A stretch of 43,420 bases of DNA from Kagunavirus LM02P1, in sequence record OZ035819.1; one strand, 5' to 3'. Within the stretch, counting starts at the first letter, position 1. The number at the start of each line of letters is the position of its first letter. Of this stretch, positions 4,337 to 40,482 are shown piece by piece. The notes under the pieces were generated by a model. It was not told the origin of the DNA and did not search any database. It saw only the letters and a program-made list of their open reading frames with translations. Both the position numbers and the translations under genes were made by a program.

Positions 4337-4365
4337 AAGGCCCCGTTATGGGGCCTTAGTTTTAT
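4337..4365. terminator. bidirectional intrinsic terminator
   Basis: GC hairpin AAGGCCCC-gttat-GGGGCCTT flanked by T-runs on both strands, between convergent genes 3872..4333 (+) and 4362..4655 (-). Confidence 0.6.
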
Positions 4366-4655
4366 TTCTTTCCTAATGCTTTCTTGATTGCTTTGCCGGC
4401 CAGATTTAACGGATGGTCTTCATGGCAATCATCAGAAGATACCGCGCAAACATCCTCAACGTAATCGCGAAGCTGGCGAAGTGCTTCAAGTAACTCTGGT
4501 GCCGAGGCGATAAGTTTTGCGTTAGCCAATTTTACTGAGTCCTTTTCCCTCATACTCATTACCTCCGCCACATAAACATCACCCGCCCAGATAGCCGTTC
4601 CGCGATTAACCCATGCACCGTCTGTACCTTTAAATTCGTGTGTCATTTTTTTCAT
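4362..4655 (-). CDS. hypothetical protein (antisense moron, 97 aa)
   Basis: ATG at 4655 with own promoter at 4676-4704 and terminator at 4337-4365; no motif recognised. Confidence 0.55.
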   Translation of the reverse strand: MKKMTHEFKGTDGAWVNRGTAIWAGDVYVAEVMSMREKDSVKLANAKLIASAPELLEALRQLRDYVEDVCAVSSDDCHEDHPLNLAGKAIKKALGKK

Positions 4656-4675
4656 CTCCTGTTCAAGTTAACTGA

Positions 4676-4704
4676 ATAGTACCCTATTATATTGGGGTGT
4701 GCAA
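4676..4704 (-). promoter_or_regulatory. sigma70-type promoter (TTGCAC-N17-TACTAT) for 4362..4655
   Basis: Read on minus strand; core 27 nt (4673-4699) identical to 13905-13931. Confidence 0.55.
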
Positions 4705-4770
4705 ACTATTTGTCTACGTATTCCAGTTATTCCGCTCAATTGTAAATGTTGGAATAAACTATTCGAATAG

Positions 4771-4799
4771 TTGACTTTTCACTGAAAATGTGCTAAGCT
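4771..4799 (+). promoter_or_regulatory. strong sigma70-type promoter TTGACT-N17-TAAGCT with TGn extended -10
   Basis: -35 at 4771-4776, -10 at 4794-4799 preceded by TGC; perfect palindrome CTATTCGAATAG at 4759-4770 abuts the -35. Confidence 0.55.
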
Positions 4800-11905: not shown

Positions 11906-11909
11906 AACT

Positions 11910-12107: not shown

Positions 12108-12330
12108 CAATATTACTCCTGTACTCCCGTAACTTCTCCAGACTTTCAATTGCTTCTGCCAAGTCTGTTCCGGTGTCCTTGTGACCCCGCAAGCCCATAC
12201 ACAGCAGTTTCTTTAAAGCATGCTGTAACGCCGGGTCGCGGATATCGAAGGCGCGCAGCACATCATAAACGTCTACTGTCATAGTGCTGCCGTGAGTGTT
12301 TGTCATTGTGCGGTTGTATTTATTTGTCAC
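12100..12330 (-). CDS. small hypothetical protein (76 aa from GTG; internal ATGs possible)
   Basis: Minus-strand ORF with overlapping start/stop coupling to neighbours. Confidence 0.4.
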   Translation of the reverse strand: MTNKYNRTMTNTHGSTMTVDVYDVLRAFDIRDPALQHALKKLLCMGLRGHKDTGTDLAEAIESLEKLREYRSNIDE

Positions 12331-12520
12331 TGTTAACTCTCTTAAATCTGGCTATGCCTGACTCGTTAATGTTGCCTATTTCAAAGAAGCTGCGATATTT
12401 AGGCGAATACATTTTTACATCGCCATTCTCTAGGGTGACCCCTTCATATACAGCACCTACTTCGAATCCATTTTTCTCCGCGTACGGACTAACCTCGGTA
12501 CATTCATACATGTCTTTCAT
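12320..12520 (-). CDS. small hypothetical protein (66 aa)
   Basis: ATG at 12520 overlaps the stop of 12517..13647 (ATGA coupling). Confidence 0.45.
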   Translation of the reverse strand: MKDMYECTEVSPYAEKNGFEVGAVYEGVTLENGDVKMYSPKYRSFFEIGNINESGIARFKRVNSDK

Positions 12521-13647
12521 CCCAGCATCTCCGGTGAAATAGTTAAACGTGCGACCTCGCCATATTCGGCGCTATAAGTAATTACATTTGCACTGCGGCC
12601 TGACATCCATCCGCCGCGGGAGGCGTAGGCGTCTTTAGCCGCTAAGGTGCGGTGTTGCTCAACAACCATGTTACGGCTTTCTACAATCTTCTGATGGTGC
12701 AGGTGGCCCACGTGGGCGTAGCTATAGGCACTCTCACCGAACGCTTTGCGGAACTTGGCAATCATAACCGGTTCGATAGCGTCGAAGCGTGCTTTATGTC
12801 CGTGATGAAAGAACAGCGTAGTTTTGCCGTGTTGTACCATCTTGTAAACATCCGGCGACGTATCGACGAACACACGCGGCTCGTTGTCGTACAGCGTACT
12901 GAACATCTCGGCTAACCAAATCATACCCGATTCGTCGTGGTTCCCTTGCACGATAAGCAGTCGGACGTTTTTATGTTTAACCAGTGCCATATCAACAACA
13001 CGGCGAACCATACGAATCATGTAGCGTACAAGTTTCTGATAGCGTGTGTCCGCATCAAGAACATGACCACTCGCTGGCGTAACTGCGTCCAGACTATCGA
13101 AGTGCGCAAGGTCGCCGAGCAGGTTAATAACTCCTGTTCCCGCGTCCGGTGCTTTCTGAAACGCCGCGTCGAACCATCGGGAGAACAGGTCTTCAGCAAT
13201 CTTCATATCCCAGTCGTCGCCGCTTTCATCGGCCCAGGCCAGCATACCGAGATGGAAATCAGATACCGTGTAAAGATTAAGTAGCTTGTCGTCGCGTTTG
13301 GCTCGAGTCGCTTTAACAGGCGCAACCGGCGTAATCTCTGACTTCATACCTTCGATTACGGCTTTCATCAACTCGACCTGACGTTCGGCGTCGGTGTCAG
13401 TCTTAACCCATTGCAGTTTGGTGTTGCCGAACTCATCCACCAGTGACGACGTCCCCTTAATCTTGTAGCCGTCCGGCACAAGGTGACTAACGTCGCGCCC
13501 GTGGCCTACGCCTTTCTTTGCCAGCTTCGCTTTACGGATACGAATAACGCGGTCTGAGATGCCGTATTTACGGGCGATGTCTACATTCTTCATCCCGGCG
13601 TTCAATTCTTCCTGTAACTGCTCGTCGGTTATTTTCTTCTGGGCCAT
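12517..13647 (-). CDS. HTH domain fused to calcineurin-like metallophosphoesterase (SbcD/Mre11-like or phosphodiesterase-like)
   Basis: 376 aa; N-terminal HTH NVDIARKYGISDRVIRIRKAKL; full metallophosphatase motif set SDFHLG, GDLAHFD, GNHDE, HHGH, GHLHH; RBS GAGGAAG. Confidence 0.7.
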   Translation of the reverse strand: MAQKKITDEQLQEELNAGMKNVDIARKYGISDRVIRIRKAKLAKKGVGHGRDVSHLVPDGYKIKGTSSLVDEFGNTKLQWVKTDTDAERQVELMKAVIEGMKSEITPVAPVKATRAKRDDKLLNLYTVSDFHLGMLAWADESGDDWDMKIAEDLFSRWFDAAFQKAPDAGTGVINLLGDLAHFDSLDAVTPASGHVLDADTRYQKLVRYMIRMVRRVVDMALVKHKNVRLLIVQGNHDESGMIWLAEMFSTLYDNEPRVFVDTSPDVYKMVQHGKTTLFFHHGHKARFDAIEPVMIAKFRKAFGESAYSYAHVGHLHHQKIVESRNMVVEQHRTLAAKDAYASRGGWMSGRSANVITYSAEYGEVARLTISPEMLG

Positions 13648-13685: not shown

Positions 13686-13892
13686 TCACTTCTCTTTGAC
13701 ATTCGAGTTGCACGCCCAGATTAAAATAAATACCCACGGCAGCAGAACCCAGCCAAGAAACAGATTAGCCATGAATATCGCTAATTTCGCTTTATGGTCG
13801 CGGAAATATGCAACCAGAAACGGCGCGAAATAAGCGAGCAGTGCAAACAGAATTAAGGAAACTGGTAAACTTGACATTTTAAACCCCTTCAT
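13686..13892 (-). CDS. small 2-TM membrane protein, superinfection-immunity (Imm)-like
   Basis: 68 aa; two hydrophobic helices around YFAPFLVAYFRDHKAKLAIFMANLFLGWVLLPWVFILIWA, matching the Imm-type signature as I recall it; first gene after promoter. Confidence 0.5.
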   Translation of the reverse strand: MKGFKMSSLPVSLILFALLAYFAPFLVAYFRDHKAKLAIFMANLFLGWVLLPWVFILIWACNSNVKEK

Positions 13893-13907
13893 TGTTGGTG
13901 TAAGTGA

Positions 13908-13936
13908 ATAGTACCCTATTATATTGGGGTGCGCAA
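13908..13936 (-). promoter_or_regulatory. sigma70-type promoter (TTGCGC-N17-TACTAT) for the antisense island
   Basis: Spacer identical to promoter at 4676-4704; sits 16 nt upstream of the ATG at 13892. Confidence 0.55.
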
Positions 13937-25412: not shown

Positions 25413-25667
25413 TTAGTTAGATAATTCGCCTTGAACTTGCTTAATAAGTTCTCTGGCCGTTGTGAAGTCTACGGACAGCCCTTTAGCGACGTCTTCCGCA
25501 AGCACCTTGTGACCAACTGACCCGAAGCCCAGGATACGGTTTACTTCCGAAACCTTCATAGACCATGAGTAATTAACTGACGCCCCTGTGTATTTACCGA
25601 TACGAACAGATGAATCGATTGAACCAATAATCATGGTGTTTACTGACAGTTGAAGTTCGATAGCCAT
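25413..25667 (-). CDS. hypothetical protein (84 aa)
   Basis: ATG at 25667 downstream of promoter 25702-25730. Confidence 0.4.
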   Translation of the reverse strand: MAIELQLSVNTMIIGSIDSSVRIGKYTGASVNYSWSMKVSEVNRILGFGSVGHKVLAEDVAKGLSVDFTTARELIKQVQGELSN

Positions 25668-25668
25668 T

Positions 25669-25983
25669 TTATAATTCCTTATATTGTTGGGGTATGTGCT
25701 TACTATAATAGTCTGCTATTAGGGTGTCAATCTGTTTTATCGAACCAACGACAAAAACATTTGCGCCACGTTTGCGCATCCGCTCATGCTCACGTAGCTG
25801 GTGGGGGTCAGGCTTCGTGTTTTCGTCTTTCTTAACCTCGACGAACCAGACGACGCCGCCGGGGAGAATTGCCAGCAGGTCGGGGGCGCCGGAACGCCCC
25901 TCGTAGGAAAGTTTACGAACGAGGCCACCAAGGGCCTCGAATCGCTCCTTTGCATATTTCTGTATTTTGCCTTCCGGGGTCAT
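25669..25983 (-). CDS. VRR-NUC domain nuclease (PD-(D/E)XK fold)
   Basis: Motif GAPDLLAILPGGVVWFVEVK (D...E-V-K core); ATG at 25983 preferred over upstream TTG at 25998. Confidence 0.65.
   Translation of the reverse strand: MTPEGKIQKYAKERFEALGGLVRKLSYEGRSGAPDLLAILPGGVVWFVEVKKDENTKPDPHQLREHERMRKRGANVFVVGSIKQIDTLIADYYSKHIPQQYKEL
25702..25730 (-). promoter_or_regulatory. sigma70-type promoter TTGACA-N17-TATAGT inside the 3' end of the VRR-NUC gene
   Basis: Near-consensus hexamers read on minus strand; would drive 25413..25667 and downstream genes. Confidence 0.5.
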
Positions 25984-29499: not shown

Positions 29500-29528
29500 A
29501 ATATAATAGCTAACTATTCAGGTGTCAA
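29500..29528 (-). promoter_or_regulatory. sigma70-type promoter TTGACA-N17-TATATT for SSB gene
   Basis: Near-consensus hexamers read on minus strand, ~50 nt upstream of the ATG at 29447. Confidence 0.6.
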
Positions 29529-29791: not shown

Positions 29792-30999
29792 TCAGGCCGT
29801 TTGTCGTCTGCCGTTGCAACGCATGGTGCGCCTGGCTTACGGGTGATGAAGTCTTTCAGTTCTTCTTCCGGTATTACTTTAACCGCTTCGGTAGGGGTCA
29901 TGAGCACTTCTTTAGTCAGCTTGTCGCCGTAGAGTTCTGCCACTTTCTCTGCGTCTTTCCACGCACGATTACCCGGCCTGCCTTCAACCAACTTGTACCC
30001 CGGCACTTTCTTACCGGAATGCAAAGCGGCGGCCATAGCTTTCTCAACCTTGTCGATGTGCTGGCGCAACAACGGCAACTTCTCATACTCAGATACGAGT
30101 TGCTCCGGCGTAAGTTCCAGTGCAAAGTCATCTTCCAGTTCTCCGGCCAGTACCGAATTAACGGTTTTTGTACGCGCGGCGCACTGTTCAGAGAACCGGC
30201 ACCACTGACAGCCATCGACCGACGGCCTGAAGTCCGACGCCTTCAGGTTCTTCTTACCGCGGAAATAGGCATCAAGAGCCAACAGCGCGCGTTTCTGGGC
30301 AAACTTAGCGAACAGCTCCAGCCCCTCAGCCGAGATGTCCCACTCCGACGCGCCACCCGCGTACGGCTGGAAGATAACCAGGCGAACTGTTGTTATGTGA
30401 TAACGTCTCTTGAGTCGGCGATAAACACCGAGAGCATAGAGCATAAGCTGTTTGTTTTCTTTCGCTTCGACACGATGCCGCCCTGTTTTAAGGTCGCCAA
30501 TAATTAGCATGTGCTCGTCTGTGTTCGCCAGCTCCTGGACGGCAACAAGGTCGGCGGTTCCGAATGTCTCGACGCCTTCGTAACCTGGATGCAGCACCTC
30601 AGTAAGATTGACGCGCATCTCCAGTTTTGCGTAAGTAGCCACGTCGATAATCGCTTTGCAGTAGTCGGTGTACTTTGTACACTGGTCAATCATGTCCGCC
30701 GTAATAAGTACCGCGCCTTTCATCGGACTGATTAGCGCCTTAATCTGGCCTTTACCCTCATCCAGTACATATGCACCTACTTCACGTGCTAACGGTAGCG
30801 CAGTTCCGCGGATATAGGCATTTAGGTGCACTTCTGCGATTGTATGACATGCGGTCCCTGTAACGGCAGCTTTACCCGATTCGTTAGGAATGTCTTTTTC
30901 ACACGCCAGTGATGCGGCACAGGTAAGCCACTTTTTAGCACCTGATGGCGACAGTAAGGCGTGCACATCGTTATTGCCGCCGCGTTCTTTTAAAATCAT
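29758..30999 (-). CDS. PD-(D/E)XK nuclease, DUF2800/Cas4-like
   Basis: 413 aa; N-terminal LSPSGAKKWLTCAAS motif as I recall for this family; sits between SSB and primase as in many phage replication modules. Confidence 0.55.
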   Translation of the reverse strand: MILKERGGNNDVHALLSPSGAKKWLTCAASLACEKDIPNESGKAAVTGTACHTIAEVHLNAYIRGTALPLAREVGAYVLDEGKGQIKALISPMKGAVLITADMIDQCTKYTDYCKAIIDVATYAKLEMRVNLTEVLHPGYEGVETFGTADLVAVQELANTDEHMLIIGDLKTGRHRVEAKENKQLMLYALGVYRRLKRRYHITTVRLVIFQPYAGGASEWDISAEGLELFAKFAQKRALLALDAYFRGKKNLKASDFRPSVDGCQWCRFSEQCAARTKTVNSVLAGELEDDFALELTPEQLVSEYEKLPLLRQHIDKVEKAMAAALHSGKKVPGYKLVEGRPGNRAWKDAEKVAELYGDKLTKEVLMTPTEAVKVIPEEELKDFITRKPGAPCVATADDKRPEWNRVTEEDLK

Positions 31000-31493
31000 T
31001 TCTCGGCTCCGTTAACTGTAAACCCGTATTTAATTTCGGCTTGCCTACGAGCCTTAGCCGCGTTCTCTAACCTATCGTAAGCACCTAAATAAATTGGCGC
31101 CCCATCTACATAAATTCTGGCGACCCACTTACCAGAGCGTTTATGAAACCCAACGCCTTTAACACCTGAAGCATTGTCAGTCCGTATTTTGGTGCCGTGG
31201 GCGATACTACCTCGTCGCATTTTTATAAGATTTTCTATTCTGTTATCAGTTCTATCTTTATTTGCGTGGCGAATTACTTCCCCTGGCGCTATCTCCCCAT
31301 TAAACATCTCCCAAACCACGTGGTGGATAAGTTTAGTAACCCCGTTAAAACGTAGTATTTTGAATTCACTTCCGTCGTTATCCACCCTCACACTCCCAGC
31401 TTCTTGGCCTATTTTTACCGATTTTGATGGTCTTATCTTCCAATACAATTTCCCTGTGACAGGGTCGTAGTCAAACAGTTCATGCCAATTCAT
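30996..31493 (-). CDS. HNH homing endonuclease with C-terminal AP2 DNA-binding domain
   Basis: HNH region HHVVWEMFNG...IRHANKDRTDNRIENL; AP2-like region GVKGVGFHKRSGKWVARIYVDG; ATG at 31493 with GGGAGG RBS; locally AT-rich by eye. Confidence 0.7.
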   Translation of the reverse strand: MNWHELFDYDPVTGKLYWKIRPSKSVKIGQEAGSVRVDNDGSEFKILRFNGVTKLIHHVVWEMFNGEIAPGEVIRHANKDRTDNRIENLIKMRRGSIAHGTKIRTDNASGVKGVGFHKRSGKWVARIYVDGAPIYLGAYDRLENAAKARRQAEIKYGFTVNGAEK

Positions 31494-31762
31494 ACCCTGA
31501 CCTCCCACTGGTCGATTAAATGCCGTGTCTTATGGTCACAATGCATCGCCCAGCTATACATCGACTCGAAGACATAAAAGTCACTTTTAACGAAAGTCGT
31601 GCGCTTAATCTGCGACAGGTGACGGCCTATATCTTTCGGCTTTGGTACTTTGCCTAAGAACGCCATCTCTTCCATCTGGTGCGCACCCGACGGCGCACGT
31701 AACAGCCACAACACCTCTGTGTTATCCCGGCGGTCGATGCCGCGGTAGAGTTGGTAAATCAT
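31490..31762 (-). CDS. hypothetical protein (90 aa)
   Basis: Stop overlaps HNH start (ATGA coupling). Confidence 0.4.
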   Translation of the reverse strand: MIYQLYRGIDRRDNTEVLWLLRAPSGAHQMEEMAFLGKVPKPKDIGRHLSQIKRTTFVKSDFYVFESMYSWAMHCDHKTRHLIDQWEVRV

Positions 31763-31804
31763 ATTCCGGCCCTCTGTTAAAGCGGCCCGAAGGCCGCAGG
31801 TAAA

Positions 31805-32317
31805 TTATTCTTCTTCGAAATACTTGTTCTTAATCGCCGTCAGACGTTCCAGGTATTCAGCCAGGTCTTCGTCTTTAATCGCGGCAATCTTCATCTTCTT
31901 GCCGGTGAACTCTTCCAGCAGTTCATCGGAATCGTCACACGCGGCATCGCTCGGACCCTCGTTAATCGCATCGTCGATAGCCTGAATCTGGTCGCGCAGA
32001 GACTGGTAATCGACTTCTTCCGGCTCTGGCGTCGGCGCATCTACAGGTTTAGGGGCTGGTTTTGATTTGCCAGGCTTGCGTTTAGGCTTTTCTTCTTCTG
32101 CCGGTTTAGTGTCAACGAGGTCTTCACCTTCAACCGGGATTTCTTTCCCGATGCCAGTGCCTGGGTCGACTTCAAGCACCTCTCCAGTAACCGATACATC
32201 TACAAGCATTTCACCTACATGCTCAGTTGGCGGCACCGGTCGTTTCGCGCTATTCGCAGCAATCAGTTCATGCGCAACTACGAAACGTTCCAGTAATTTT
32301 AAAAATTGGTCTAACAT
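31805..32317 (-). CDS. acidic hypothetical protein (170 aa)
   Basis: ATG at 32317; Pro/Lys-rich linker and strongly acidic C-terminal half; preceded by conserved leader and promoter. Confidence 0.45.
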   Translation of the reverse strand: MLDQFLKLLERFVVAHELIAANSAKRPVPPTEHVGEMLVDVSVTGEVLEVDPGTGIGKEIPVEGEDLVDTKPAEEEKPKRKPGKSKPAPKPVDAPTPEPEEVDYQSLRDQIQAIDDAINEGPSDAACDDSDELLEEFTGKKMKIAAIKDEDLAEYLERLTAIKNKYFEEE

Positions 32318-32348
32318 TTGTTTCTCTCCTCTCGTTTGGTATGGGCTA

Positions 32349-32378
32349 ACTATAATAGCTAACTATTCATGATGTCAA
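32349..32378 (-). promoter_or_regulatory. sigma70-type promoter TTGACA-N18-TATAGT for 31805..32317
   Basis: Read on minus strand; leader 32318-32348 shares 15-nt AAACGAGAGGAGAGA with the leader at 37094-37122. Confidence 0.5.
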
Positions 32379-32442
32379 TGGGCTTTTCTAAAATAATTAA
32401 TATGGTACTATTCACATATCAACTAACTAAGGAGTAATTGAC

Positions 32443-32658
32443 ATGCAACCATCTGAACTAGGCATCCGTGTAGAGCAACGCCGCAAAGAACTCGGCATCT
32501 CCCAGCGCCGTCTGGCTGTCCTGGCCGGTGTTTCTCAGGGAGCGATTAACCAGCTGGCACTTGGAGTAACTCAGGACGTCCGACCGGCGACGCTGTTTAA
32601 ACTGGCGGAAGTGCTGGAAGTAGACGCCAAGTGGCTGGCGTTCGGTGAAGGGGCTTAA
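32443..32658 (+). CDS. XRE-family helix-turn-helix transcriptional regulator
   Basis: 71 aa; HTH LGISQRRLAVLAGVSQGAINQLALG; RBS AAGGAG; only + strand gene inside the - strand replication module. Confidence 0.7.
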   Translation: MQPSELGIRVEQRRKELGISQRRLAVLAGVSQGAINQLALGVTQDVRPATLFKLAEVLEVDAKWLAFGEGA

Positions 32659-32673
32659 CGCCCCTTTCTTTTT
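32648..32673. terminator. bidirectional intrinsic terminator
   Basis: Hairpin AGGGGC-ttaac-GCCCCT followed by TTCTTTTT; overlaps XRE stop; primase stop at 32676. Confidence 0.6.
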
Positions 32674-32675
32674 AT

Positions 32676-34943
32676 CTATTCCAAATCTTCCTCTGTCACT
32701 GTCAGCATTTCATTCGGTTCGTATATTGTCTTCGGAATCTTGTTATCCGTTATTCGGGTGTTCAGCCTGTAACGGCCTGGAATTATCTGATTGTTTTCGT
32801 CGGTCCCTGGCACAAGATAACCCGCCTCAACCATTTTCTTAATCTTCCCACGTTCTATGGCTTCTTTGGAGTTAAACGCCTTTGCGTTAGGGTCGGACTG
32901 TGCGAGCTTATTTGCCGCAGCTACTGTGATACCTTCGTTGCCATTGTAGGTTCCTTCCGCCAGTTCAAACGCCGCCAGTATCGTGGCCTCCGAACTGTTG
33001 ACGGCGTTCTCTACGGTTTTACGTACGTTTTCTTTACCTTCCTTTGTCAGCCCTTCTTCCCGCTCTTTCTCCTCATCGGTCTTGAATGGCTCGAATCCCC
33101 AAGGCATCAATACAAGCGCCTTGTGCGGTTCAGGCAGGTCGAGGTTTACGATTGTGCCGTATTCCTCGGTGGAACCGAGGAACTCAACCGCGCGGTACTC
33201 TTTCGGCGGAGGTGCTTCACGGAACTGTACCGACTCCAGCACCATGCCAACCGTCTTCTGTTGGGGGCCGTGCTTAAATTTCGAGTGGTATACGTTTATC
33301 TGACGGTCGGTTGCACGTTCGATTGTCAGTTCCACGTCGACACCCGCATACAGCGCCCCGCTGCCACGGGCTTTCTTTCCGCCCTTCGGGGTATGGTGGA
33401 CAACGCCTACCGCAGCTTTAGTCGCGTCGCGTACTTCTTTCAGGATGGCGATAACTTTACCCATACCGATCGCCGTTGATGAACTGTTCTCGTCGAACTT
33501 ATCAATCGTCAGGGCCAGCGTCTGGTTGAGTGTGTCGAACGCAACCATACCAATTGGCTCGTCGCCTGCAGTTTCGCGCATCAACTTAATCAGGTTTTTC
33601 AGTTTGCCGACTTCGCCCATGTCGATGACATGTACGTAATCTTTACCTTCCTCGCCATATTTAGCGGCTAGTGCATCAATACGGGTGCGTGTAGCGGCAC
33701 CGCCCTCGCCATCGATATAGAAATGGTGGCAACGCTGGGTATCCGCCCCCGCAAACCGGTATCCGGCGGCGCTGAGGTACATCATCCCCAGCGTATAGAA
33801 CGATTTGTACGTACCTGATTCCCCGACAATATCCCAGATACAATCTGACGGCATGTACCCTTCAACGACGAAATCCGCCTTTACTGGTTCTGGTAGCTCG
33901 TCCTCCTCTGAGTCATCATTGTCTTCCAGGTCGTCGAGGCTGCATGAAACTGATTCACGCGCACCCCAGCCGATAGCCTCTGCGACTTCACTGAATGGCA
34001 GCCCTGTAGCGTCACACGCATACTTCCACACCTCTTTCGGCGACATGCCCTCGGTTGCCGTGATGTCGGTGTCGTGAATCATGGTTACGTTAGGCGCTTC
34101 GTATCCCTCGCGCGGGAAGCACAACAGGAAGTCGTCCGGGCGTGGAGTCGGGTCGCTATAGTTTTCGGCGTGTTCTGGTGTGGCGGGCATCTTAAGGCCG
34201 CGTGGCGTCAAGATGCCGCCGTGCTCGAAGGCCAGTGCTTCAAACGCATCGGTAAACGCAGTGCGCAGTTCTTCCGGTATCTGGTAATCCGATGCGCTGC
34301 TCACCTCGTAATCCGGGATGCCTTCCAGTAACTCGCCGGGGTCAATCAGGTCATTGCGGCGCGACCAGATAACCTGAGAGCCAACCGGCGGCAGGTACAT
34401 CGGCTGGGACAGAGTAAACCCGCTGCGGTCCGCGCCCATGCCTTTGAAGAAGTGCTCCAGCAACCCGTGACGTACGCGGATGATGTCACCGCCTTCGACC
34501 GGGCGGGCCAGCGGCATGACGACGCGAAAGCGTGGAGACTCATCGGTATGGGATGCCGTGGTGTAAACGCACATGGCTTTACGGCCTCGCTTAACCAGGC
34601 GCACTGCTTCCTGGTACTCTTCCGGCGTTGCGCTGTCGAAGTCAAGATACGCCAGTGACGATTTGGTTACAGACGCGTCACAGCGATAGAAGAAGCCTTT
34701 ACGCGCATGCTTAAAGTCACCTGTTTCCGGGTCTTTTACGGTGCTGTGCGTTGAGTCGCACGCGGCAGTGATATACCCCGGCGCTGTCTTAGGGTTAATC
34801 CCGTCATGAACAGCATCAAGCGGCTGGATTAACTCTTTCAGGTCGTCCAGTGTTGCCGTATGTGTGGTTCTGACGTTTATATCCTTTTTCTCCGCCCGCG
34901 CGTTGCGACGGGACCACGAGTAGGATAAAATTACATCGGACAT
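32676..34943 (-). CDS. bifunctional primase-polymerase (AEP) / P-loop helicase
   Basis: 755 aa; AEP motifs AYLDFD and TTASHTDESPRFRVVMP; C-terminal Walker A GESGTYKS, Walker B-like MVAFD. Confidence 0.75.
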   Translation of the reverse strand: MSDVILSYSWSRRNARAEKKDINVRTTHTATLDDLKELIQPLDAVHDGINPKTAPGYITAACDSTHSTVKDPETGDFKHARKGFFYRCDASVTKSSLAYLDFDSATPEEYQEAVRLVKRGRKAMCVYTTASHTDESPRFRVVMPLARPVEGGDIIRVRHGLLEHFFKGMGADRSGFTLSQPMYLPPVGSQVIWSRRNDLIDPGELLEGIPDYEVSSASDYQIPEELRTAFTDAFEALAFEHGGILTPRGLKMPATPEHAENYSDPTPRPDDFLLCFPREGYEAPNVTMIHDTDITATEGMSPKEVWKYACDATGLPFSEVAEAIGWGARESVSCSLDDLEDNDDSEEDELPEPVKADFVVEGYMPSDCIWDIVGESGTYKSFYTLGMMYLSAAGYRFAGADTQRCHHFYIDGEGGAATRTRIDALAAKYGEEGKDYVHVIDMGEVGKLKNLIKLMRETAGDEPIGMVAFDTLNQTLALTIDKFDENSSSTAIGMGKVIAILKEVRDATKAAVGVVHHTPKGGKKARGSGALYAGVDVELTIERATDRQINVYHSKFKHGPQQKTVGMVLESVQFREAPPPKEYRAVEFLGSTEEYGTIVNLDLPEPHKALVLMPWGFEPFKTDEEKEREEGLTKEGKENVRKTVENAVNSSEATILAAFELAEGTYNGNEGITVAAANKLAQSDPNAKAFNSKEAIERGKIKKMVEAGYLVPGTDENNQIIPGRYRLNTRITDNKIPKTIYEPNEMLTVTEEDLE

Positions 34944-35002
34944 ATTGTATATTCCTTCAGCAAGTAATTTGGCCTCGGCGTTCGCCGCGTCGGGGCTTTC
35001 TT

Positions 35003-35278
35003 TTATTCCAGGTCGCGGGAGATATTACCCTCGGGGACCAACACTTTTCCAATACTTCTCGCTTTCTCTGTAATAGGCGTCGCTCTTGTTGCCCGATAAA
35101 ACTTTCCTTTATTAAGAATCTCACCATGTCGCTCGAGCACATCTAAAGCATGTTTAATCGGGCTTACACCGTAATTATCCAACCGGTATCTCCGAAGCCC
35201 GTCTACTGTAAAAGCGCCGTTCGCTTCGGTCAGTCTGCGTGCACACATTAATATGTTTTTCTGGAATTTAGTTAGCAT
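35003..35278 (-). CDS. hypothetical protein (91 aa)
   Basis: Second gene of leftward early operon. Confidence 0.4.
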   Translation of the reverse strand: MLTKFQKNILMCARRLTEANGAFTVDGLRRYRLDNYGVSPIKHALDVLERHGEILNKGKFYRATRATPITEKARSIGKVLVPEGNISRDLE

Positions 35279-35447
35279 CTTTTACGTTCTCCTTAATCCA
35301 CGCCTCCACAGTAGCGCGGTCAAACGTACCCGGCTGACGGTAGCCGTTAATAACACGACAACACTCCGGGAACTTTCCTGACCGAAGCCAGCGATTAAGA
35401 GTCATAGGGGAAACCCCGATTAAGTCTGCTACTTCTTTCTGTGTCAT
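35268..35447 (-). CDS. AlpA/excisionase-type HTH DNA-binding protein
   Basis: ATG at 35447 with RBS; motif MTQKEVADLIGVSPMTLNRWLRSGKFP. Confidence 0.55.
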   Translation of the reverse strand: MTQKEVADLIGVSPMTLNRWLRSGKFPECCRVINGYRQPGTFDRATVEAWIKENVKDAN

Positions 35448-35476
35448 TTTATGCGCCCTCTTTATCAAGTGAAACA

Positions 35477-35505
35477 ACTATAACACCTACAATAGCCAAA
35501 CACAA
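35477..35505 (-). promoter_or_regulatory. sigma70-type promoter TTGTGT-N17-TATAGT for leftward replication operon
   Basis: Hexamers with 17-nt spacer read on minus strand upstream of 35447. Confidence 0.45.
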
Positions 35506-35868
35506 CCTATTGACAAAATAAAATGTAGCTGTAAAATCAACGTATCGAAGAGCTTTAGTTCAGAATTACTTAGAAACAATATTCTTAAGTCTCGGGTACT
35601 TAAAGCCCCGCCCTAAAGCGGGGCGCTAAATAGTACTCTTGGTAACGTTAGTATCTAAGTTTCCTCAAAGTAACAGCAAGTGGCAAGAAAGCCCCCGTCT
35701 ATTTAAATTTTACCCTCCTACATAAGCCACTGATAATTAAAAGTTTCTATAGATGCCGTAAGCAAGGTAGAGAGTACTTCACTCCGCTGGGGTGGGCTAA
35801 CGCCCACCCACTGCGTTGCGTACTCTTTTAAGAAACGAAAGAATCACAACGGCAACGTAACTATTCTC

Positions 35869-35897
35869 TTGCACGCCCCAACATAATAGGATACTAT
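35869..35897 (+). promoter_or_regulatory. sigma70-type early promoter TTGCAC-N17-TACTAT
   Basis: Same architecture as 37065-37093, 4676-4704 and 13908-13936; followed by conserved leader TTATCGAAACGAGA. Confidence 0.55.
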
Positions 35898-35931
35898 TCA
35901 CTTATCGAAACGAGACAGAGGAGTGAGGGTT

Positions 35932-36114
35932 ATGTTTAAACGTGGTCAGTTGGTTAAAACTGTACAGGGCCAATATGGAATTATTAAACGAGTTCCGAAT
36001 AAAGTTCCAGGGTCGTACCATCTCACGCACCCAGAATGGGACTTTGACGTGGGGGTGCGTGAAGACGAGCTAACACTCATCGGCAACAATTTTAAATTCA
36101 AAGGGGCGAAGTGA
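35932..36114 (+). CDS. early protein (60 aa)
   Basis: ATG at 35932 with RBS GGAGTGAGGG; first gene after early promoter. Confidence 0.45.
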   Translation: MFKRGQLVKTVQGQYGIIKRVPNKVPGSYHLTHPEWDFDVGVREDELTLIGNNFKFKGAK

Positions 36115-36347
36115 TGGAAGAATTAATTTGCGTTACCAGTCTCTGCGATTACTTCACAGAAGGAAAGCGTTATACGTTAAGTATCGATGGGTACGTTACC
36201 TCTGATGATGGCGATGATTATCGGGTAACTGACGAGGATGTATATGAAGGGCGTATGGGTGTTTATACCTGGAGATGGTTAGCATTATTCACAACGGCAT
36301 CGAATCATGATGCTCGTGCCGACGACTCTGAGGGAGGTTGCCGTTAA
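36114..36347 (+). CDS. early acidic protein (77 aa)
   Basis: ATGA coupling; D/E-rich (DDGDDYRVTDEDVYEG). Confidence 0.45.
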   Translation: MEELICVTSLCDYFTEGKRYTLSIDGYVTSDDGDDYRVTDEDVYEGRMGVYTWRWLALFTTASNHDARADDSEGGCR

Positions 36348-36604
36348 TGACTAACACTGAACTGGAAACTGTTGCCGAAAAACTGCATAAGGCGCGAGTA
36401 ATGGCCCGGGGCGCTGGACTGGAGCAGTTTTACAACATGTGGCGCACCGCAACGCGCGACCCTGATTTTCTGCGAACTGGGTGTCTCTTGTATAAAGACG
36501 TTTATCCTGTTCGTGCTCGCAAGGACTACGGGTGGGTTCGTGAGACACCTAATCTTTTGTGGTGTTGGGCGCATGGTGAGTTTTGGGTAAGGGTTAAGGA
36601 CTAA
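36347..36604 (+). CDS. early protein (85 aa)
   Basis: ATG at 36347 with RBS GAGGGAGG. Confidence 0.45.
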   Translation: MTNTELETVAEKLHKARVMARGAGLEQFYNMWRTATRDPDFLRTGCLLYKDVYPVRARKDYGWVRETPNLLWCWAHGEFWVRVKD

Positions 36605-36607
36605 GTT

Positions 36608-36769
36608 ATGAGAGAAGCATCCGAACGGTGGGCCGTCGTCGAAGGGCTGCCCGTTAACAAGGGTTCAAAGAAAGAGTACCTGAACGTTAAGACGCGTCTC
36701 GCGTGGCGGGCGTGGAAAGCTGGTGTGCAGTTCCGTGCTGGTATAACAGGTGGGGTGACAGGTCAATAG
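36608..36769 (+). CDS. small basic protein (53 aa)
   Basis: ATG at 36608 with RBS AAGGA; below ORF-track cutoff. Confidence 0.35.
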   Translation: MREASERWAVVEGLPVNKGSKKEYLNVKTRLAWRAWKAGVQFRAGITGGVTGQ

Positions 36770-36792
36770 CTTACTATTTTACTGAGTGACTT

Positions 36793-36830
36793 ACGCTGCT
36801 ACACAGCAGCGTATCATTTTTCTCATTTTT
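36793..36830 (+). terminator. intrinsic terminator
   Basis: Hairpin ACGCTGCT-acac-AGCAGCGT followed by ATCATTTTTCTCATTTTT. Confidence 0.6.
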
Positions 36831-36883
36831 GTTCTATTTCACCAAACGCAACAATCGAAGCGACTATTGCAGGAGATGCAACA

Positions 36884-37057
36884 ATGATTACTAGAGAACA
36901 GGCCGAACGACTAATCACGTTAATCGACACGATGATTGATGTAAAAACCGATTTAGCAACGGCAACAGAGGAATACGCTACCTGGTCGCTTGAAGAAAGA
37001 GAAGCAGAAGCGGAGCGCGAGTTACTGGCGTTCATCGATTCCATAACACACCAATAA
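36884..37057 (+). CDS. small protein (57 aa)
   Basis: ATG at 36884 with RBS AGGAGA. Confidence 0.35.
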   Translation: MITREQAERLITLIDTMIDVKTDLATATEEYATWSLEEREAEAERELLAFIDSITHQ

Positions 37058-37064
37058 AATTTAC

Positions 37065-37093
37065 TTGCACACACAGATATAATAGACTACTAT
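37065..37093 (+). promoter_or_regulatory. sigma70-type promoter TTGCAC-N17-TACTAT
   Basis: Same architecture as 35869-35897; followed by leader TTATCGAAACGAGAGGAGAGAGAAG. Confidence 0.55.
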
Positions 37094-37122
37094 TCAGTTA
37101 TCGAAACGAGAGGAGAGAGAAG

Positions 37123-37251
37123 ATGAAAGATTATAGCGAAGTGACTTTAGGTGAGTTGCAGGGCGAGTACGAAGATATGCTCTACCCGTTCATCTGCGAC
37201 GGAGATTACAACGGCGTCTATAACGGAGTGAGCGAAGAATATGAACACTAA
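37123..37251 (+). CDS. small acidic protein (42 aa)
   Basis: ATG at 37123 after conserved leader/RBS. Confidence 0.3.
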   Translation: MKDYSEVTLGELQGEYEDMLYPFICDGDYNGVYNGVSEEYEH

Positions 37252-37975
37252 AAACGAAGTATTCGAATACCTGATTGACCAGCTATGGCATCAGGTAAAT
37301 AAGAAAGATGTCACATCTTTCAATGTGTCTGTGCGGATATCCGACCTTGATGAGGTCAAGCAGGTAATTCACAACCTACAGCAGCATATCGCTGGTAAGG
37401 ACGACGAAATACGTATGCTGAAAGACAGCCTACGGCAGCAGATGGCGAACAACCCCCACAAGCAGCAGTGCGAAGACCTGGCGCATGAGGTGCAGTCACT
37501 TAAGAATCAGTTACGTGATATGTCGGAATTGGTGGATGAGTTGATGGGTACAATAACGTTAATGAATGAAGACTTTGGCCGCGTAACAGGGCGGAGCGGT
37601 CCTTTACCTAAAGGGGAGAGCTACGTAGTAGGTGAGCACGGGCCTGAGCAATCCGGTTGCCGTAAGGGAGATACTCAGGAATGCGAGCACTCTTGGATTA
37701 TTATGCCTGGGTTGTTTCTTAGCGAAGGCAATCCGAACAACGTTCCTGGTAGTGAGTTATGCTGTAAATGTGGTAAGCGTGAGTGGGATGTTAAGGGATA
37801 TAAACCGAAAGATGATACCCAGGAATGCTCCTATAACTGGCGATTCGTTAATGGTAAGGCTCCCGCCGTATGTATTAATTGCGGAATGACTAAATCCAGC
37901 AAGTGTGAGCACGAATGGTGCTTTTACGATGGTGGTGCTTTGAAGATGTGCAGAATATGCGGGCTAAAGAAATGA
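37241..37975 (+). CDS. coiled-coil protein with three C-terminal zinc-ribbon-like repeats
   Basis: 244 aa; three units of C-x-H/Y-x-W ... C-x-x-C-G (CEHSW...CCKCG, CSYNW...CINCG, CEHEW...CRICG). Confidence 0.55.
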   Translation: MNTKNEVFEYLIDQLWHQVNKKDVTSFNVSVRISDLDEVKQVIHNLQQHIAGKDDEIRMLKDSLRQQMANNPHKQQCEDLAHEVQSLKNQLRDMSELVDELMGTITLMNEDFGRVTGRSGPLPKGESYVVGEHGPEQSGCRKGDTQECEHSWIIMPGLFLSEGNPNNVPGSELCCKCGKREWDVKGYKPKDDTQECSYNWRFVNGKAPAVCINCGMTKSSKCEHEWCFYDGGALKMCRICGLKK

Positions 37976-38175
37976 CCAGTATCTTATTTATCTGGGTACT
38001 ATCCGCAGGCCAGATGCACCTCGCGGCATCGGAAACGTTTTATTCTATGGAGGCGTGCCAGTCCGCGGCACGCGCAGCAGAGAACGCGCACTTCCTGTTT
38101 CAGGGTGACAAGCCCAACGATTCAGAGGTACGCGCTATCTGCTCACCTAAGCGACTCGGTAAACAGGAGAAGTGA
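37972..38175 (+). CDS. small secreted/periplasmic protein (67 aa)
   Basis: ATGA coupling; N-terminal signal-peptide-like ILFIWVLSAGQMHLAAS, two Cys in mature part. Confidence 0.4.
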   Translation: MTSILFIWVLSAGQMHLAASETFYSMEACQSAARAAENAHFLFQGDKPNDSEVRAICSPKRLGKQEK

Positions 38176-38176
38176 T

Positions 38177-38443
38177 ATGGTACAGAGATACGAGTTATCG
38201 GATAAATGGGAAGAGCCTAAGATGGCGAAGTATGACTGGGGTGATTATGTAGAGTACGACAGCTATAAGGAACTTGACGACTATTACCAGGAACGCATCG
38301 CCGATGCCAACGAGGAAATAGAGGTTCTCGTCGCAAGACTGGCGGAAGTAAACGCCGAGTTACAGAAATACAAAGACCAGTTCCCGGATTACGTCGAGTG
38401 CGCGAACTGTGGGTCAGTTACGCATGTGGAAGGGGTGGAGTGA
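38177..38443 (+). CDS. small acidic protein, MVQRY paralogue A (88 aa)
   Basis: ATG at 38177 with RBS AGGAGA; begins MVQRY; C-terminal CANCG. Confidence 0.45.
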   Translation: MVQRYELSDKWEEPKMAKYDWGDYVEYDSYKELDDYYQERIADANEEIEVLVARLAEVNAELQKYKDQFPDYVECANCGSVTHVEGVE

Positions 38444-38667
38444 TGGTACAGAGATACTTATTACAGGGTGGTTTAATAGGGCCGCACGATGAAGGTGATT
38501 GGGTAGGTTACGAAGACTACGCGGCGCTTGAGCGTAAGTTTGACTCGATATTAAACCTCCTTGTTAAACTAGATGATGATTTGGGTTACGGTAAGATACC
38601 TGATGAATATGCCTACGACAGAATCGGTGAGATTATCGAGAAGCACCAAAATGACCTTAGCGACTGA
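38443..38667 (+). CDS. small acidic protein, MVQRY paralogue B (74 aa)
   Basis: ATG at 38443 (TGATG coupling); begins MVQRY like the upstream gene. Confidence 0.45.
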   Translation: MVQRYLLQGGLIGPHDEGDWVGYEDYAALERKFDSILNLLVKLDDDLGYGKIPDEYAYDRIGEIIEKHQNDLSD

Positions 38668-38818
38668 CATCCTGAAAAACAGCGGCAAAGCGCCGCTGTC
38701 GCCACGTAAACGACATTTCAACACGCATCCGACGTATCTTGAATTACATGAGCGCCGGAAGACACCGGCGCAACGACTGGCTGAATATTGGAGAAAGCAT
38801 GACTACTATCGCGTTTGA
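38651..38818 (+). CDS. small basic protein (55 aa)
   Basis: ATG at 38651 overlapping the upstream gene end; K/R-rich. Confidence 0.3.
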   Translation: MTLATDILKNSGKAPLSPRKRHFNTHPTYLELHERRKTPAQRLAEYWRKHDYYRV

Positions 38819-39236
38819 CGGTAAGACGATGGCCTGCGACACCCGAGTTACCGCGGGCGACACGTATTTCAACACAGATACCAAGATATACGAGAGTGAT
38901 GCTTATGTTATCGGGGTCGCCGGTGACGCGGGCTGTGGTACTATGCTTGTTCAGGTATCAAATATCCTGACCATGCGTACCTATGAGTATAACTTTAAGG
39001 CTATTGTATACGAGAAGCACACCAGACGTGTTTTCTATGTGTCATTCGATAAAAGCTGGGGGTCAAATAGCTGCGTTGTCCCAATTGTTGATAGCTACTT
39101 CGCCGTCGGTTCAGGGGCTGATTTCGCGCGCGCAGCTATGGAATGTGAGTATTCCGCACAGGGGGCAGTGGCCGTTGCATCGAAGTTTGACACTAACACC
39201 GGCGGCAAGATTATTACCAAACAACTATTAGGATAA
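38799..39236 (+). CDS. HslV/proteasome beta-subunit-like Ntn hydrolase
   Basis: ATG at 38799 with RBS GGAGA; after Met the protein starts TTI (HslV starts TTIVSV); VTAGDTYFNTDTK, YVIGVAGDAGCG and FAVGSGADFARAA parallel HslV segments. Confidence 0.55.
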   Translation: MTTIAFDGKTMACDTRVTAGDTYFNTDTKIYESDAYVIGVAGDAGCGTMLVQVSNILTMRTYEYNFKAIVYEKHTRRVFYVSFDKSWGSNSCVVPIVDSYFAVGSGADFARAAMECEYSAQGAVAVASKFDTNTGGKIITKQLLG

Positions 39237-39295
39237 TTCCTACCCGTGGTATCCTCCAGTTACTGCATACTTAATACGCACCTGGAGGATTCATC

Positions 39296-39604
39296 TTGGA
39301 TAAATTTACTGAAACTGTGACAGGCTGGCTTCTCGCTGCCGCGCTAGCCGGAGGGGTTATCGGACTACGGCAACATAAGTCCGTTATTTCTGGGCCTATA
39401 GACGGCTTCTGCTTTATTGCAACTGGCTTCACTTGTGCCGTGTTTGGTGCACCTCTCGCGGCTCAATGGTTTGGCATTACGGGCGACCGTGAAATCGCAG
39501 GCCTGGGCTTCATTATCGCTATTCTCTGGATGCCTATCTATTCCCGCCTCTCTGGTATTGTTGCCGGAGAATATATCGCACGTCGAGGAGGCCCAGATGA
39601 ATGA
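39296..39604 (+). CDS. holin
   Basis: 102 aa, three hydrophobic helices, charged C-terminus; immediately upstream of lysozyme. Confidence 0.6.
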   Translation: MDKFTETVTGWLLAAALAGGVIGLRQHKSVISGPIDGFCFIATGFTCAVFGAPLAAQWFGITGDREIAGLGFIIAILWMPIYSRLSGIVAGEYIARRGGPDE

Positions 39605-39869
39605 GTTATTCTGGTTCGGCGGTATGCTGGCAATCGGAGGCGCATCGCTGTTTAATGTATATCATCCCAGCGTTGACGACGGGCTATTTGGCCGGGTGCT
39701 CTATATCCTGACCGCTATTGTCTGCGCCGCCGGGTGTATCCACCTGTTACAGGGCAGCATGTCACCTACGCTGCCTGAGACATTAATCACATTAGTTGCG
39801 CTGCGTCAGATTCGTCATGCGTGGCTGTCATACGGAGGATATAAGCGTGTCTCGAAATATTTCAGATAA
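39597..39869 (+). CDS. small membrane protein (second holin-like / lysis regulator, putative)
   Basis: ATG at 39597 with RBS GGAGG, overlapping holin stop (ATGAATGA); two hydrophobic segments. Confidence 0.45.
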   Translation: MNELFWFGGMLAIGGASLFNVYHPSVDDGLFGRVLYILTAIVCAAGCIHLLQGSMSPTLPETLITLVALRQIRHAWLSYGGYKRVSKYFR

Positions 39870-40335
39870 TGGATTGCATTTTACCGCTGCGTTCGAGGGG
39901 TTCCGCGGAACTGCATATCGCGCTACACCGAACGAGACGTACCTGACTATTGGTTACGGTCATTACGGGCCGGATGTAACGCCAGGCAAGACCATCACCC
40001 CGGGGCAAGGCCTCCTGTTACTAAATCGCGATATGGCGAAGGCCGTAGGCGCGGTTGATGCAGCAGCACACCATTCACTGACACAGGCACAGTTCGACGC
40101 TGTGTGCGACCTGGTCTATAACGCGGGTGCGGGCGTGATTGCCGCTACCACCGGAACCGGTAAGGCGCTGCGCTCCGGTGATGTTGCGACGCTGCGGGCT
40201 AAGCTGGCGCTGTTCATCAACCAGAACGGCAAACCGTTGCTCGGCCTGCGCCGCCGTACAGCCGGACGGCTCGCACTGTTCGACGGTAAACCGTGGCAGG
40301 AGGCTGAGGCTATTGGGCGCGCGGTGAAAGGTTGA
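39847..40335 (+). CDS. endolysin, GH24 phage lysozyme
   Basis: GTG at 39847 after GGAGG; ISDNGLHFTAAFEGFRGTAYRA...YLTIGYGH (catalytic E, TIGxGH) and C-terminal RRRTAGRLALF; frame open from 39796. Confidence 0.75.
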   Translation: MSRNISDNGLHFTAAFEGFRGTAYRATPNETYLTIGYGHYGPDVTPGKTITPGQGLLLLNRDMAKAVGAVDAAAHHSLTQAQFDAVCDLVYNAGAGVIAATTGTGKALRSGDVATLRAKLALFINQNGKPLLGLRRRTAGRLALFDGKPWQEAEAIGRAVKG

Positions 40336-40433: not shown

Positions 40434-40453
40434 CTATTTTCTGCAATGACTAG

Positions 40454-40482
40454 TTGACTATTACCTACGACCCTATTATATT
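40454..40482 (+). promoter_or_regulatory. sigma70-type promoter TTGACT-N17-TATATT
   Basis: Near-consensus; leader 40483-40515 carries the ATCGACAACGAGA variant of the conserved leader. Confidence 0.6.

Follow-up and report, generated by a model that had tools for sequence, protein, structure and literature searches.

The XRE Locus and Its Genomic Setting

The stretch of DNA analyzed here, 43,420 nucleotides of Kagunavirus LM02P1 (sequence record OZ035819.1) and referred to below as the window, carries at positions 32,318 to 32,673 a small regulatory gene of the XRE family, the divergent promoters that are predicted to serve this gene and the neighboring replication genes, and a terminator hairpin. 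Both promoters are marked by a 14-bp palindrome, AATAG-N4-CTATT, which recurs at predicted promoters across the window and for which the XRE protein is a candidate repressor. The 1.2 kb around the gene match 443 phage records. Since the best of these are Escherichia phages K1H, K1G, AV104 and other members of Kagunavirus (87-91% identity), with many Salmonella Jerseyviruses following, the window is assigned by similarity to a Kagunavirus-like siphophage of the subfamily Guernseyvirinae, a coliphage. Phages of the sister genus Jerseyvirus have been described as strictly lytic and without lysogeny genes, and Kagunavirus isolates are treated as lytic phages. The original prediction for this locus had likewise spoken of a phage with no lysogeny genes, and a Pfam scan of the 68 open reading frames (ORFs) of the window is consistent with this, as no integrase, recombinase or S24 peptidase is found among the 25 families listed (20 more are presumably weaker single-member matches).

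The 71-aa XRE helix-turn-helix (HTH) protein that had been predicted is confirmed by the ORF and by a match to the Pfam family HTH_3 (PF01381) over residues 11-65 (E 2.3e-12; 47.2 bits against a cut-off of 23), and PHROG families of transcription regulators are matched as well. Among solved sequences, phage 434 Cro, likewise of 71 aa, is the closest (E 5.4e-7), with the 434 repressor and P22 C2 next. A single-sequence AlphaFold model (pLDDT 84) has five helices, and its top Foldseek matches, with probability 1.0 and TM scores of about 0.7-0.8, are 434 Cro, the 434 repressor, SinR and P22 C2, the first of them being the structure 2cro (TM 0.73/0.79, 40% identity). HTH_3 is the only domain present, and there is no C-terminal oligomerization or peptidase domain. 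Judged by sequence and model, XRE is a single-domain HTH protein of the Cro type that resembles 434 Cro. A homologue is carried by roughly 560 phage genomes. Orthologues are 94-100% identical within Kagunavirus, about 51% in Jerseyvirus, about 41% in Cornellvirus and 38% in phage phiEap-2, and in all these genera and lineages the gene is divergent from an operon headed by the gene for a 170-aa protein (p170). In relatives these orthologues are annotated as 'transcriptional repressor', 'cro' or 'HTH protein', names that derive from similarity only. Literature searches on promoters, operators and repressors of Kagunavirus, Jerseyvirus and Guernseyvirinae yielded papers of the genome-announcement type only, and neither a functional study of XRE nor a description of an operator or palindrome was found. 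While the regulator gene itself has already been annotated in relatives as a repressor or Cro, the genome-wide operator set appears to be undescribed.

As had been claimed, the XRE gene is the sole plus-strand gene in the minus-strand replication block, which extends from about 22.7 to 35.5 kb. This is evident from the ORF maps and from the annotation of the relative fEg-Eco06, where the only plus-strand coding sequence of the equivalent block is the XRE orthologue ('transcriptional regulator cro'); the other plus-strand ORFs of the greedy map in this block overlap minus-strand genes annotated in relatives. Leftward of the XRE gene, the p170 gene is followed by a 90-aa ORF, an HNH endonuclease gene and a DUF2800 nuclease gene, and the genes for single-stranded DNA-binding protein (SSB) and DNA polymerase, further along, have their own operator-bearing promoter at 29505. 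Homologues of p170 adjoin XRE in the Jerseyvirus SETP3, the Cornellvirus St162 and phiEap-2. The HNH_3 endonuclease encoded within the replication operon (30996-31508, minus strand) has an AP2-like domain; relatives have homing-endonuclease insertions at varying places, and the helicases of SETP3 and St162 contain inteins. On the other side of XRE, the gene that had been called a primase gene is present, and Pfam identifies its product as an AAA_25 helicase-primase. In St162 (9779-12685), in the Cornellvirus VSiA (34354-37005) and in phiEap-2 (37244-39897), the helicase-primase gene is found downstream of XRE and co-oriented with it, so the segment in Kagunavirus and Jerseyvirus is inverted relative to Cornellvirus and phiEap-2. 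Because of this arrangement in Cornellvirus and phiEap-2, the conserved layout, as read from the gene orders, is an XRE gene divergent from the operon of p170, DUF2800 nuclease, SSB and polymerase, and not an XRE gene embedded in an operon.

The XRE transcript is predicted to be monocistronic and to end at its own intrinsic terminator. The GC hairpin (32647-32667) overlaps the XRE stop codon and lies 8 nt past the stop codon of the helicase-primase gene, and a 50-nt segment that includes it folds at -13.1 to -14.6 kcal/mol on either strand. A U-run follows the stem on the plus strand only (CUUUUUAUCU, also given as UUUCUUUUUAUCU), the minus strand continuing with CACCGAACGCC, and for this reason the hairpin would serve as the XRE terminator and not, as first proposed, as a bidirectional terminator that also closes the primase gene. 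Leftward helicase-primase transcripts may well, in this prediction, read through the hairpin antisense to XRE. The hairpin and its T-run are kept in all 37 related loci, whichever gene follows. An Rfam scan of 31000-37500 (E<=1) gave no matches, so neither the conserved intergenic region nor the hairpin is a known RNA.

A Palindrome at Both Divergent Promoters and Across the Genome

All promoter positions given here are consensus predictions, start sites not having been mapped. The consensus promoter described earlier for 31805..32317, back-to-back with the XRE upstream region, is borne out by the scan, and its -35 region lies 5 bp from that of the predicted XRE promoter. On the minus strand it is composed of TTGACA (32378..32373), an 18-nt spacer and TATAGT (32354..32349). 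The predicted XRE promoter combines a weak -35, TTTTCT (32384-32389), with a 16-nt spacer and an extended -10, TGgTACTAT (32403-32411). Each of them carries a candidate operator, O1 in the leftward spacer and O2 on the extended -10 of XRE (Table 1). An 8-nt inverted repeat in the same region, ATGTCAAT/ATTGACAT (32372/32437), was rejected as an operator, since its right arm varies among relatives (TAACTGAC, TAGCTGAC, TAATTGTC). The Shine-Dalgarno region of XRE, ACTAAGGAG, is kept in SETP3, St162 and phiEap-2.

The palindrome of O1 is the most enriched 5+5 palindrome of the window, with eight exact copies against 0.04 expected. When one mismatch is allowed there are 13 hits, compared with 1.06 in dinucleotide-preserving shuffles (shuffle maximum 4). 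Eleven of the 13 are intergenic or at gene ends, ten of these 11 within a predicted promoter, and beyond O1 and O2 they comprise nine further sites across the genome. Two hits were set aside as probable chance: the hit at 20160 falls within coding sequence, as does its homologue in St162, and the hit at 2790, without any promoter context, overlaps a start codon, that of the gene at 2796. The exact copy at 36765, which is likewise without a convincing promoter, could be a roadblock site or mark a decayed promoter. At the divergent early promoters (35489-35537) there is no copy of the palindrome; the related sequence CAATAG-N11-CTATTG that covers them (about 35490-35516) is not conserved in SETP3 and was treated as chance. 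Plain 9-mer counting for promoter motifs was uninformative, being dominated by coding-sequence words.

The promoter-associated copies fall into three classes. In class A (TTGCAC-17-TACTAT; sites 4675 and 13907 on the minus strand, 35885 and 37081 on the plus strand), the palindrome covers the -10 with its center near -12.5, and the XRE promoter is of this type but without a good -35. In class B (TTGACA-17/18-TATAGT or TATATT; sites 25707, 29505 and 32354, all on the minus strand), its place is the spacer, with the orientation reversed and the center near -18.5, and these promoters head segments of the replication operon. In class C (4766 and 40449, both on the plus strand), a one-mismatch palindrome covers the TTGACT -35, centered near -33.5, and the promoters lead into lysis/packaging and structural genes. 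The class A promoter at 13907 drives a 68-aa Imm_superinfect-like gene (13686-13892, minus strand) and a 376-aa exonuclease-like gene (12517-13647, minus strand), which are embedded in the tail-gene block on the strand opposite to it. The palindrome is found in three registers and in both orientations with respect to transcription, and in the TTGACA class it is placed in the promoter spacer, whose sequence sigma-70 does not read; it therefore appears to be independent of the polymerase hexamers.

Table 1. Predicted features of the XRE locus and copies of the AATAG-N4-CTATT palindrome in the window (promoters are consensus predictions).
Feature	Position	Strand	Description
XRE/Cro-like regulator gene	32443..32658	+	71 aa, ATG start
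Shine-Dalgarno AAGGAG of XRE gene	32429..32434	+	8 nt upstream of ATG
Predicted XRE promoter	32384..32411	+	Consensus scan; region nearly invariant in 36 distinct relatives
Leftward sigma-70 promoter	32349..32378	-	For 31805..32317 and downstream genes; consensus scan, 11/12 matches
O1, AATAGCTAACTATT	32354..32367		Exact palindrome in 18-nt spacer of leftward promoter, overlaps its -10 by 1 nt
O2, AATATGGTACTATT	32399..32412		One-mismatch palindrome over TGn and -10 of predicted XRE promoter
Intrinsic terminator of XRE transcript	32647..32677	+	7-8 bp GC stem and U-run
p170 gene, first under leftward promoter	31805..32317	-	170 aa; no Pfam match; PHROG 3127, function not assigned
Helicase-primase gene (AAA_25, Pfam)	32676..34943	-	Convergent with XRE
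HTH_17 (excisionase/MerR-like) gene	35268..35447	-	Rival candidate binder
Operator copy, 16-mer identical to O1	29505..29518		Spacer of minus-strand promoter TTGACA-17-TATATT upstream of SSB gene; SETP3 counterpart 32244
Operator copy	25707..25720		Spacer of minus-strand promoter TTGACA-17-TATAGT upstream of 25413..25667; SETP3 counterpart 27430
Operator copy	35885..35898		Over -10 (TACTAT) of plus-strand promoter TTGCAC-17-TACTAT upstream of 35923..
Operator copy	37081..37094		Over -10 of plus-strand TTGCAC...TACTAT promoter upstream of 37123..; SETP3 counterpart 38978
Operator copy	13907..13920		Over -10 of minus-strand TTGCGC...TACTAT promoter; SETP3 counterpart 15245
Operator copy	4675..4688		Over -10 of minus-strand TTGCAC...TACTAT promoter driving 4362..4655
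One-mismatch copy, AATAGTTGACTTTT	4766..4779		Over -35 TTGACT of plus-strand promoter upstream of 5024..
One-mismatch copy, ACTAGTTGACTATT	40449..40462		Over -35 of plus-strand promoter TTGACT-17-TATATT upstream of 40516..
Exact copy, AATAGCTTACTATT	36765..36778		3' end of small ORF, just upstream of terminator 36792-36813; no convincing promoter

Conservation of the Cassette and Its Sites

In 36 of 38 IMG/VR loci the XRE protein is 96-100% identical, and the roughly 110 bp upstream of the gene are almost invariant, compared with about 87-91% DNA identity in the surroundings. The XRE gene, O1, O2 and the terminator form one nearly invariant cassette whose neighboring gene is swapped among relatives: at least five different genes are found just downstream of the leftward promoter, and the junction of the swap is at the conserved leader CCTCTCGTTTGG (32318-32336 of the window). 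The promoter-leader cassette thus has the appearance of a boundary at which recombination exchanges genes in mosaic fashion. Variation in the upstream region is confined to three places, i.e., the 3 nt between O1 and the leftward -35, the bases just after the -10, and the center of O1. The 3 nt beside O1 are hypervariable, and both hexamers are essentially invariant (one -10 substitution among 36 sequences).

Both local operators are found in 38 of 38 loci. The half-sites of O1 have 0 changes in 380 positions and its center 36 in 152, with six different centers, and O2 has no half-site changes. The site at 29505 is kept in 34 related loci with seven different centers, and that at 35885, likewise in 34 loci, has unchanged half-sites. 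Taken together, four sites in 34-38 loci have 2 half-site changes in 1440 positions and 57 center changes in 576, counts that are descriptive and not independent, the loci being related to one another. In SETP3, AATAG-N4-CTATT is again the top palindrome (five exact copies, ten with at most one mismatch), and nine sites have positional counterparts there, with recognizably homologous flanks and different centers; the counterpart of the one-mismatch site 40449, at 40840, has one mismatch too. The class A promoter with its palindrome at 35885 stands as a conserved island in a 440-bp spacer that has otherwise diverged from SETP3.

These patterns bear on the possibility that the palindrome belongs to a copied promoter cassette, A+T-rich and -10-like on both strands, and is not a protein site, in which case XRE would have a local role or no measurable one. 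The TACTAT-class promoters are alike beyond the palindrome (TTGCAC..CCCCAA.ATAATAG), the left half-site with its flank reads TATAAT, and an identical 14-nt leader/ribosome-binding sequence, AACGAGAGGAGAGA, follows two different promoters (32323-32336, minus strand; 37105-37118, plus strand), all of which would fit such copying. It is, however, difficult to reconcile with the three registers and both orientations described above, with TTGACA-class half-sites that stay invariant in the spacer while the center and neighboring bases vary freely, with a two-fold symmetry that is kept across genera as centers turn over, and with the presence of another palindrome at the equivalent promoters of Cornellvirus. 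We consider a mere promoter cassette improbable.

The conservation of the gene likewise bears on a different origin for XRE, namely as an orphan remnant of the immunity region of a temperate ancestor, or as an antitoxin- or controller-type XRE protein with a role outside phage transcription (such as host takeover, anti-defense or superinfection exclusion). Its nearest phage homologues outside Guernseyvirinae are Cro and CI proteins from temperate phages, lambdoid and other (Sf101 Cro, HK446, the CI-like protein of Mannheimia PHL101), and the model resembles, though less closely, HipB/HigA antitoxins and the controller proteins of restriction-modification systems. Such an origin or role is nevertheless very unlikely in our estimate, given a protein far better conserved than the surrounding DNA, a position conserved across four genera or lineages and always divergent from the p170 replication operon, operator-like sites that are phage-wide, and a monocistronic gene with its own terminator and no co-transcribed toxin or restriction gene.

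Candidate Proteins for Binding the Palindrome

Within the Pfam families listed for the 68 ORFs, the only recognizable HTH proteins are XRE and a 59-aa HTH_17 protein. The sites may be real operators that are bound by the latter, by an unrecognized phage protein or by a host regulator, XRE having some other role. HTH_17 is 71% identical in SETP3 and GE_vB_M5, so that it is shared by Kagunavirus and Jerseyvirus, which have the cleanest sites; the Cornellviruses St162 and VSiA, which lack the sites, have no homologue of it, and the recognition helices of XRE differ between the two genera that have the motif in common. HTH_17 and other excisionase-like proteins, on the other hand, usually bind direct repeats and not 14-bp palindromes. 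Moreover, phiEap-2 also has no HTH_17 homologue and yet keeps ten palindrome sites with at most one mismatch (about 1.3 expected) at the equivalent, orthologous promoters, and HTH_17 is therefore not required for upkeep of the motif. In St162 and VSiA, the number of AATAG-N4-CTATT sites (one and none) is at chance level, and TATTA-N6-TAATA takes its place there, with eight and six sites that are mostly located in promoters, in registers of the same kinds. Because Jerseyvirus and Cornellvirus share the host genus Salmonella and use different palindromes, a host factor is disfavored as well. Finally, two copies flank the promoter region of XRE itself, which is the usual signature of an autoregulated binder. 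A binder other than XRE is thus possible but, on this evidence, unlikely.

The recognition helix of XRE reads VSQGAINQ in Kagunavirus, VSQSLITH in Jerseyvirus, FSQGRVSH in phiEap-2 and VTQSAISH in the Cornellviruses St162 and VSiA. The genus comparison weakly supports XRE as the binder, the support being weak because it comes from one lineage split and because the Jerseyvirus helix is closer to that of Cornellvirus than to that of Kagunavirus. For the latter reason, residue-by-residue covariation of XRE and DNA was equivocal.

Proposed Role of XRE in Phage Gene Expression

The gene and its fold, the predicted promoter and terminator anatomy, and the enrichment, positions and conservation of the palindrome are shown by the analysis. 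With moderate confidence, we propose that XRE binds the palindromes and acts as an autoregulated Cro-like global repressor of phage promoters. XRE would be made from its weak, extended -10-dependent promoter, and a dimer on the 14-bp palindromes would occlude RNA polymerase. Occupancy of O1 in the leftward spacer would lower expression of the operon headed by the 170-aa gene, and the imperfect O2 over its own extended -10 would limit the synthesis of XRE. The autoregulatory switch of the original prediction is retained in part, as this anatomy fits an autoregulated repressor at a divergent promoter; confining its control to the downstream half of the replication operon, however, is too restrictive in view of the nine other promoter-associated places at which the palindrome occurs genome-wide. 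Since the palindrome recurs, in one case (29505) as an identical 16-mer, any protein that binds O1 must bind other sites too. With the palindrome within the core of about nine other promoters, XRE would be a genome-wide brake or timer on transcription by the host polymerase, in a phage lacking CI, integrase and a sigma factor of its own.

The distribution of mismatches suggests that shut-off may be graded and concentration-dependent. Exact operators are found at the strong replication promoters, at the rightward small-gene promoters and at the moron promoters; one-mismatch operators are found, in Kagunavirus and Jerseyvirus alike, at the two promoters into late (lysis/packaging/structural) genes and at the XRE promoter. 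Rising XRE would shut the exact-operator promoters before the one-mismatch ones, and expression of the HTH_17 protein, a 91-aa protein and the helicase-primase would continue from the operator-free promoters at about 35.5 kb. We infer the binding of the palindromes by XRE, repression on binding and this order of shut-off from the features described above.

Several points weigh against this proposal. The candidate binding is read from sequence, for a regulator on which no paper was found, and the promoters around the sites are themselves consensus predictions, with one exact site (36765) having none. The half-sites are A+T-rich and -10-like, so the signal of the TACTAT class could partly be promoter sequence. 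The recognition helices of Kagunavirus and Jerseyvirus differ at three to four positions, yet the palindrome is the same, and the covariation of protein and motif amounts to essentially one lineage split that is confounded with phylogeny. Furthermore, a repressor on nearly all promoters, late ones included, requires an extra assumption, graded affinity, for the infection to be productive.

A more far-reaching version makes XRE the only timer of the whole host-polymerase program, with the exact operators off first and the late and XRE promoters last, and with the regulon re-coded in the sister genus. The re-coding would be from AATAG-N4-CTATT to TATTA-N6-TAATA with changes in the recognition helix, so that the regulator and its entire regulon would have co-evolved. 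We regard this version as doubtful. Bolder still, repressor at high levels could keep the genome silenced in a carrier or pseudolysogenic state.

Phages of the genera Kagunavirus and Jerseyvirus are widely isolated with therapy and biocontrol in mind, and such phages (e.g., CM001) have been noted as attractive chassis for synthetic biology. Their gene regulation appears to be unstudied. If the proposed role of XRE is true, one small repressor and a 14-bp site would explain the timing of expression without a phage polymerase or sigma factor, and would offer engineers a defined promoter set and a natural repressor/operator pair. The annotation 'repressor', a repeated source of safety questions about lysogeny, would be better read as denoting a lytic-cycle regulator. 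In addition, the comparison of Kagunavirus and Jerseyvirus with Cornellvirus would provide a compact system for studying the co-evolution of a regulator and its dispersed regulon. A genome-wide brake would be mildly surprising for a lytic phage and would not be a new principle.

Further Sequence Features of the Window

The 9-mer ACGGCAACA is present in 11 copies on both strands (8843, 9711, 16958, 20685, 22827, 23004, 26020, 30539, 34851, 36959, and 39367), most of them in coding sequence, against 0.45 expected, and 11 copies are reached in 0 of 100 shuffles. The related word AACGGCAAC occurs 12 times in the window; St162 has 11 copies of CGGCAACAA, and phiEap-2 has a CGGCAGC-type word instead. 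The abundance of ACGGCAACA could reflect codon or peptide bias or a recognition site.

Between two divergent early operons lies an ORF-free region of about 440 bp (35478-35922), which is poorly conserved in comparison with SETP3 except for its promoters. Within it, a rightward promoter close to consensus, TTGACA-16-TAAAAT (35510-35537), is directed into non-coding DNA, and GC-rich hairpins occur twice, at about 35602-35630 and 35790-35812; the region has no Rfam match. The region could be a replication origin or encode a non-coding RNA. Ahead of the scaffold and capsid genes, inverted TTATTCC/GGAATAA repeats are clustered at 4700-4765, and phiEap-2 has four copies of GAATAA-N-TTATTC in the equivalent place (11500-12671).

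Comparison With Known Regulatory Systems

The closest relative of XRE among solved proteins is 434 Cro (2cro, 3cro, 1zug), with which it shares a length of 71 aa, a single HTH_3 domain, the best match in both sequence and fold, the glutamine that starts the recognition helix and the glutamine of helix 2. 434 Cro binds 14-bp palindromes, the 434 operators having the form ACAA-N6-TTGT. The candidate operator of XRE is similarly a 14-bp palindrome with a variable center that overlaps divergent, predicted promoters, but its half-site is AATAG instead of ACAA, and about 11 dispersed candidate operators take the place of two clusters. In contrast to 434, XRE has neither a CI partner nor a tripartite OR/OL, its divergent neighbor encodes a 170-aa protein, no integrase is among the families listed, and two extra residues lengthen the loop that follows the recognition helix. 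Among these 25 families (68 ORFs), neither an S24 peptidase nor a second HTH_3 repressor is found that could act as a switch partner. As it has no CI partner, S24 peptidase or integrase beside it, XRE is, by its gene context, not a member of a CI/Cro immunity switch.

Controller (C) proteins of restriction-modification systems are autoregulated timers that act through palindromic boxes in their own promoter and regulate one operon. C.AhdI, C.BclI and C.Esp1396I have the same small XRE fold and are among the fold matches of XRE. The sequence similarity is, however, weaker than that to 434 Cro, the neighbors of XRE are p170 and the helicase-primase and not a restriction or modification gene, and the candidate sites form a genome-wide set. 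Unlike antitoxins of the HigA/HipB type, XRE stands alone on the plus strand between its own promoter and terminator, with both neighbors on the minus strand and no toxin gene.

Serratia phage Eta was considered as a link to 'unstable lysogeny' and was uninformative, as the structural module is all that it has in common with Guernseyvirinae and as it has a different, 19-bp repeat. This repeat lies at the promoter of the equivalent opposite-strand moron (about 13376-13392), and the comparison suggests that each lineage may place the site of its own regulator at moron promoters.

Sites scattered over a whole genome are known from the immunity repressors of temperate phages, e.g., P1 C1 and gp71 of mycobacteriophage L5, whose sites are called 'stoperators'. 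Their sites are asymmetric (17 bp in P1, 13 bp in L5), and many of those of L5 gp71 lie within transcription units and act as roadblocks. Like these proteins, XRE is a small phage repressor, if the proposed role is correct, with candidate sites at or near many promoters throughout the genome. In contrast to them, its candidate site is palindromic and located in core promoters, and it is found in a phage group that has been described as lytic.

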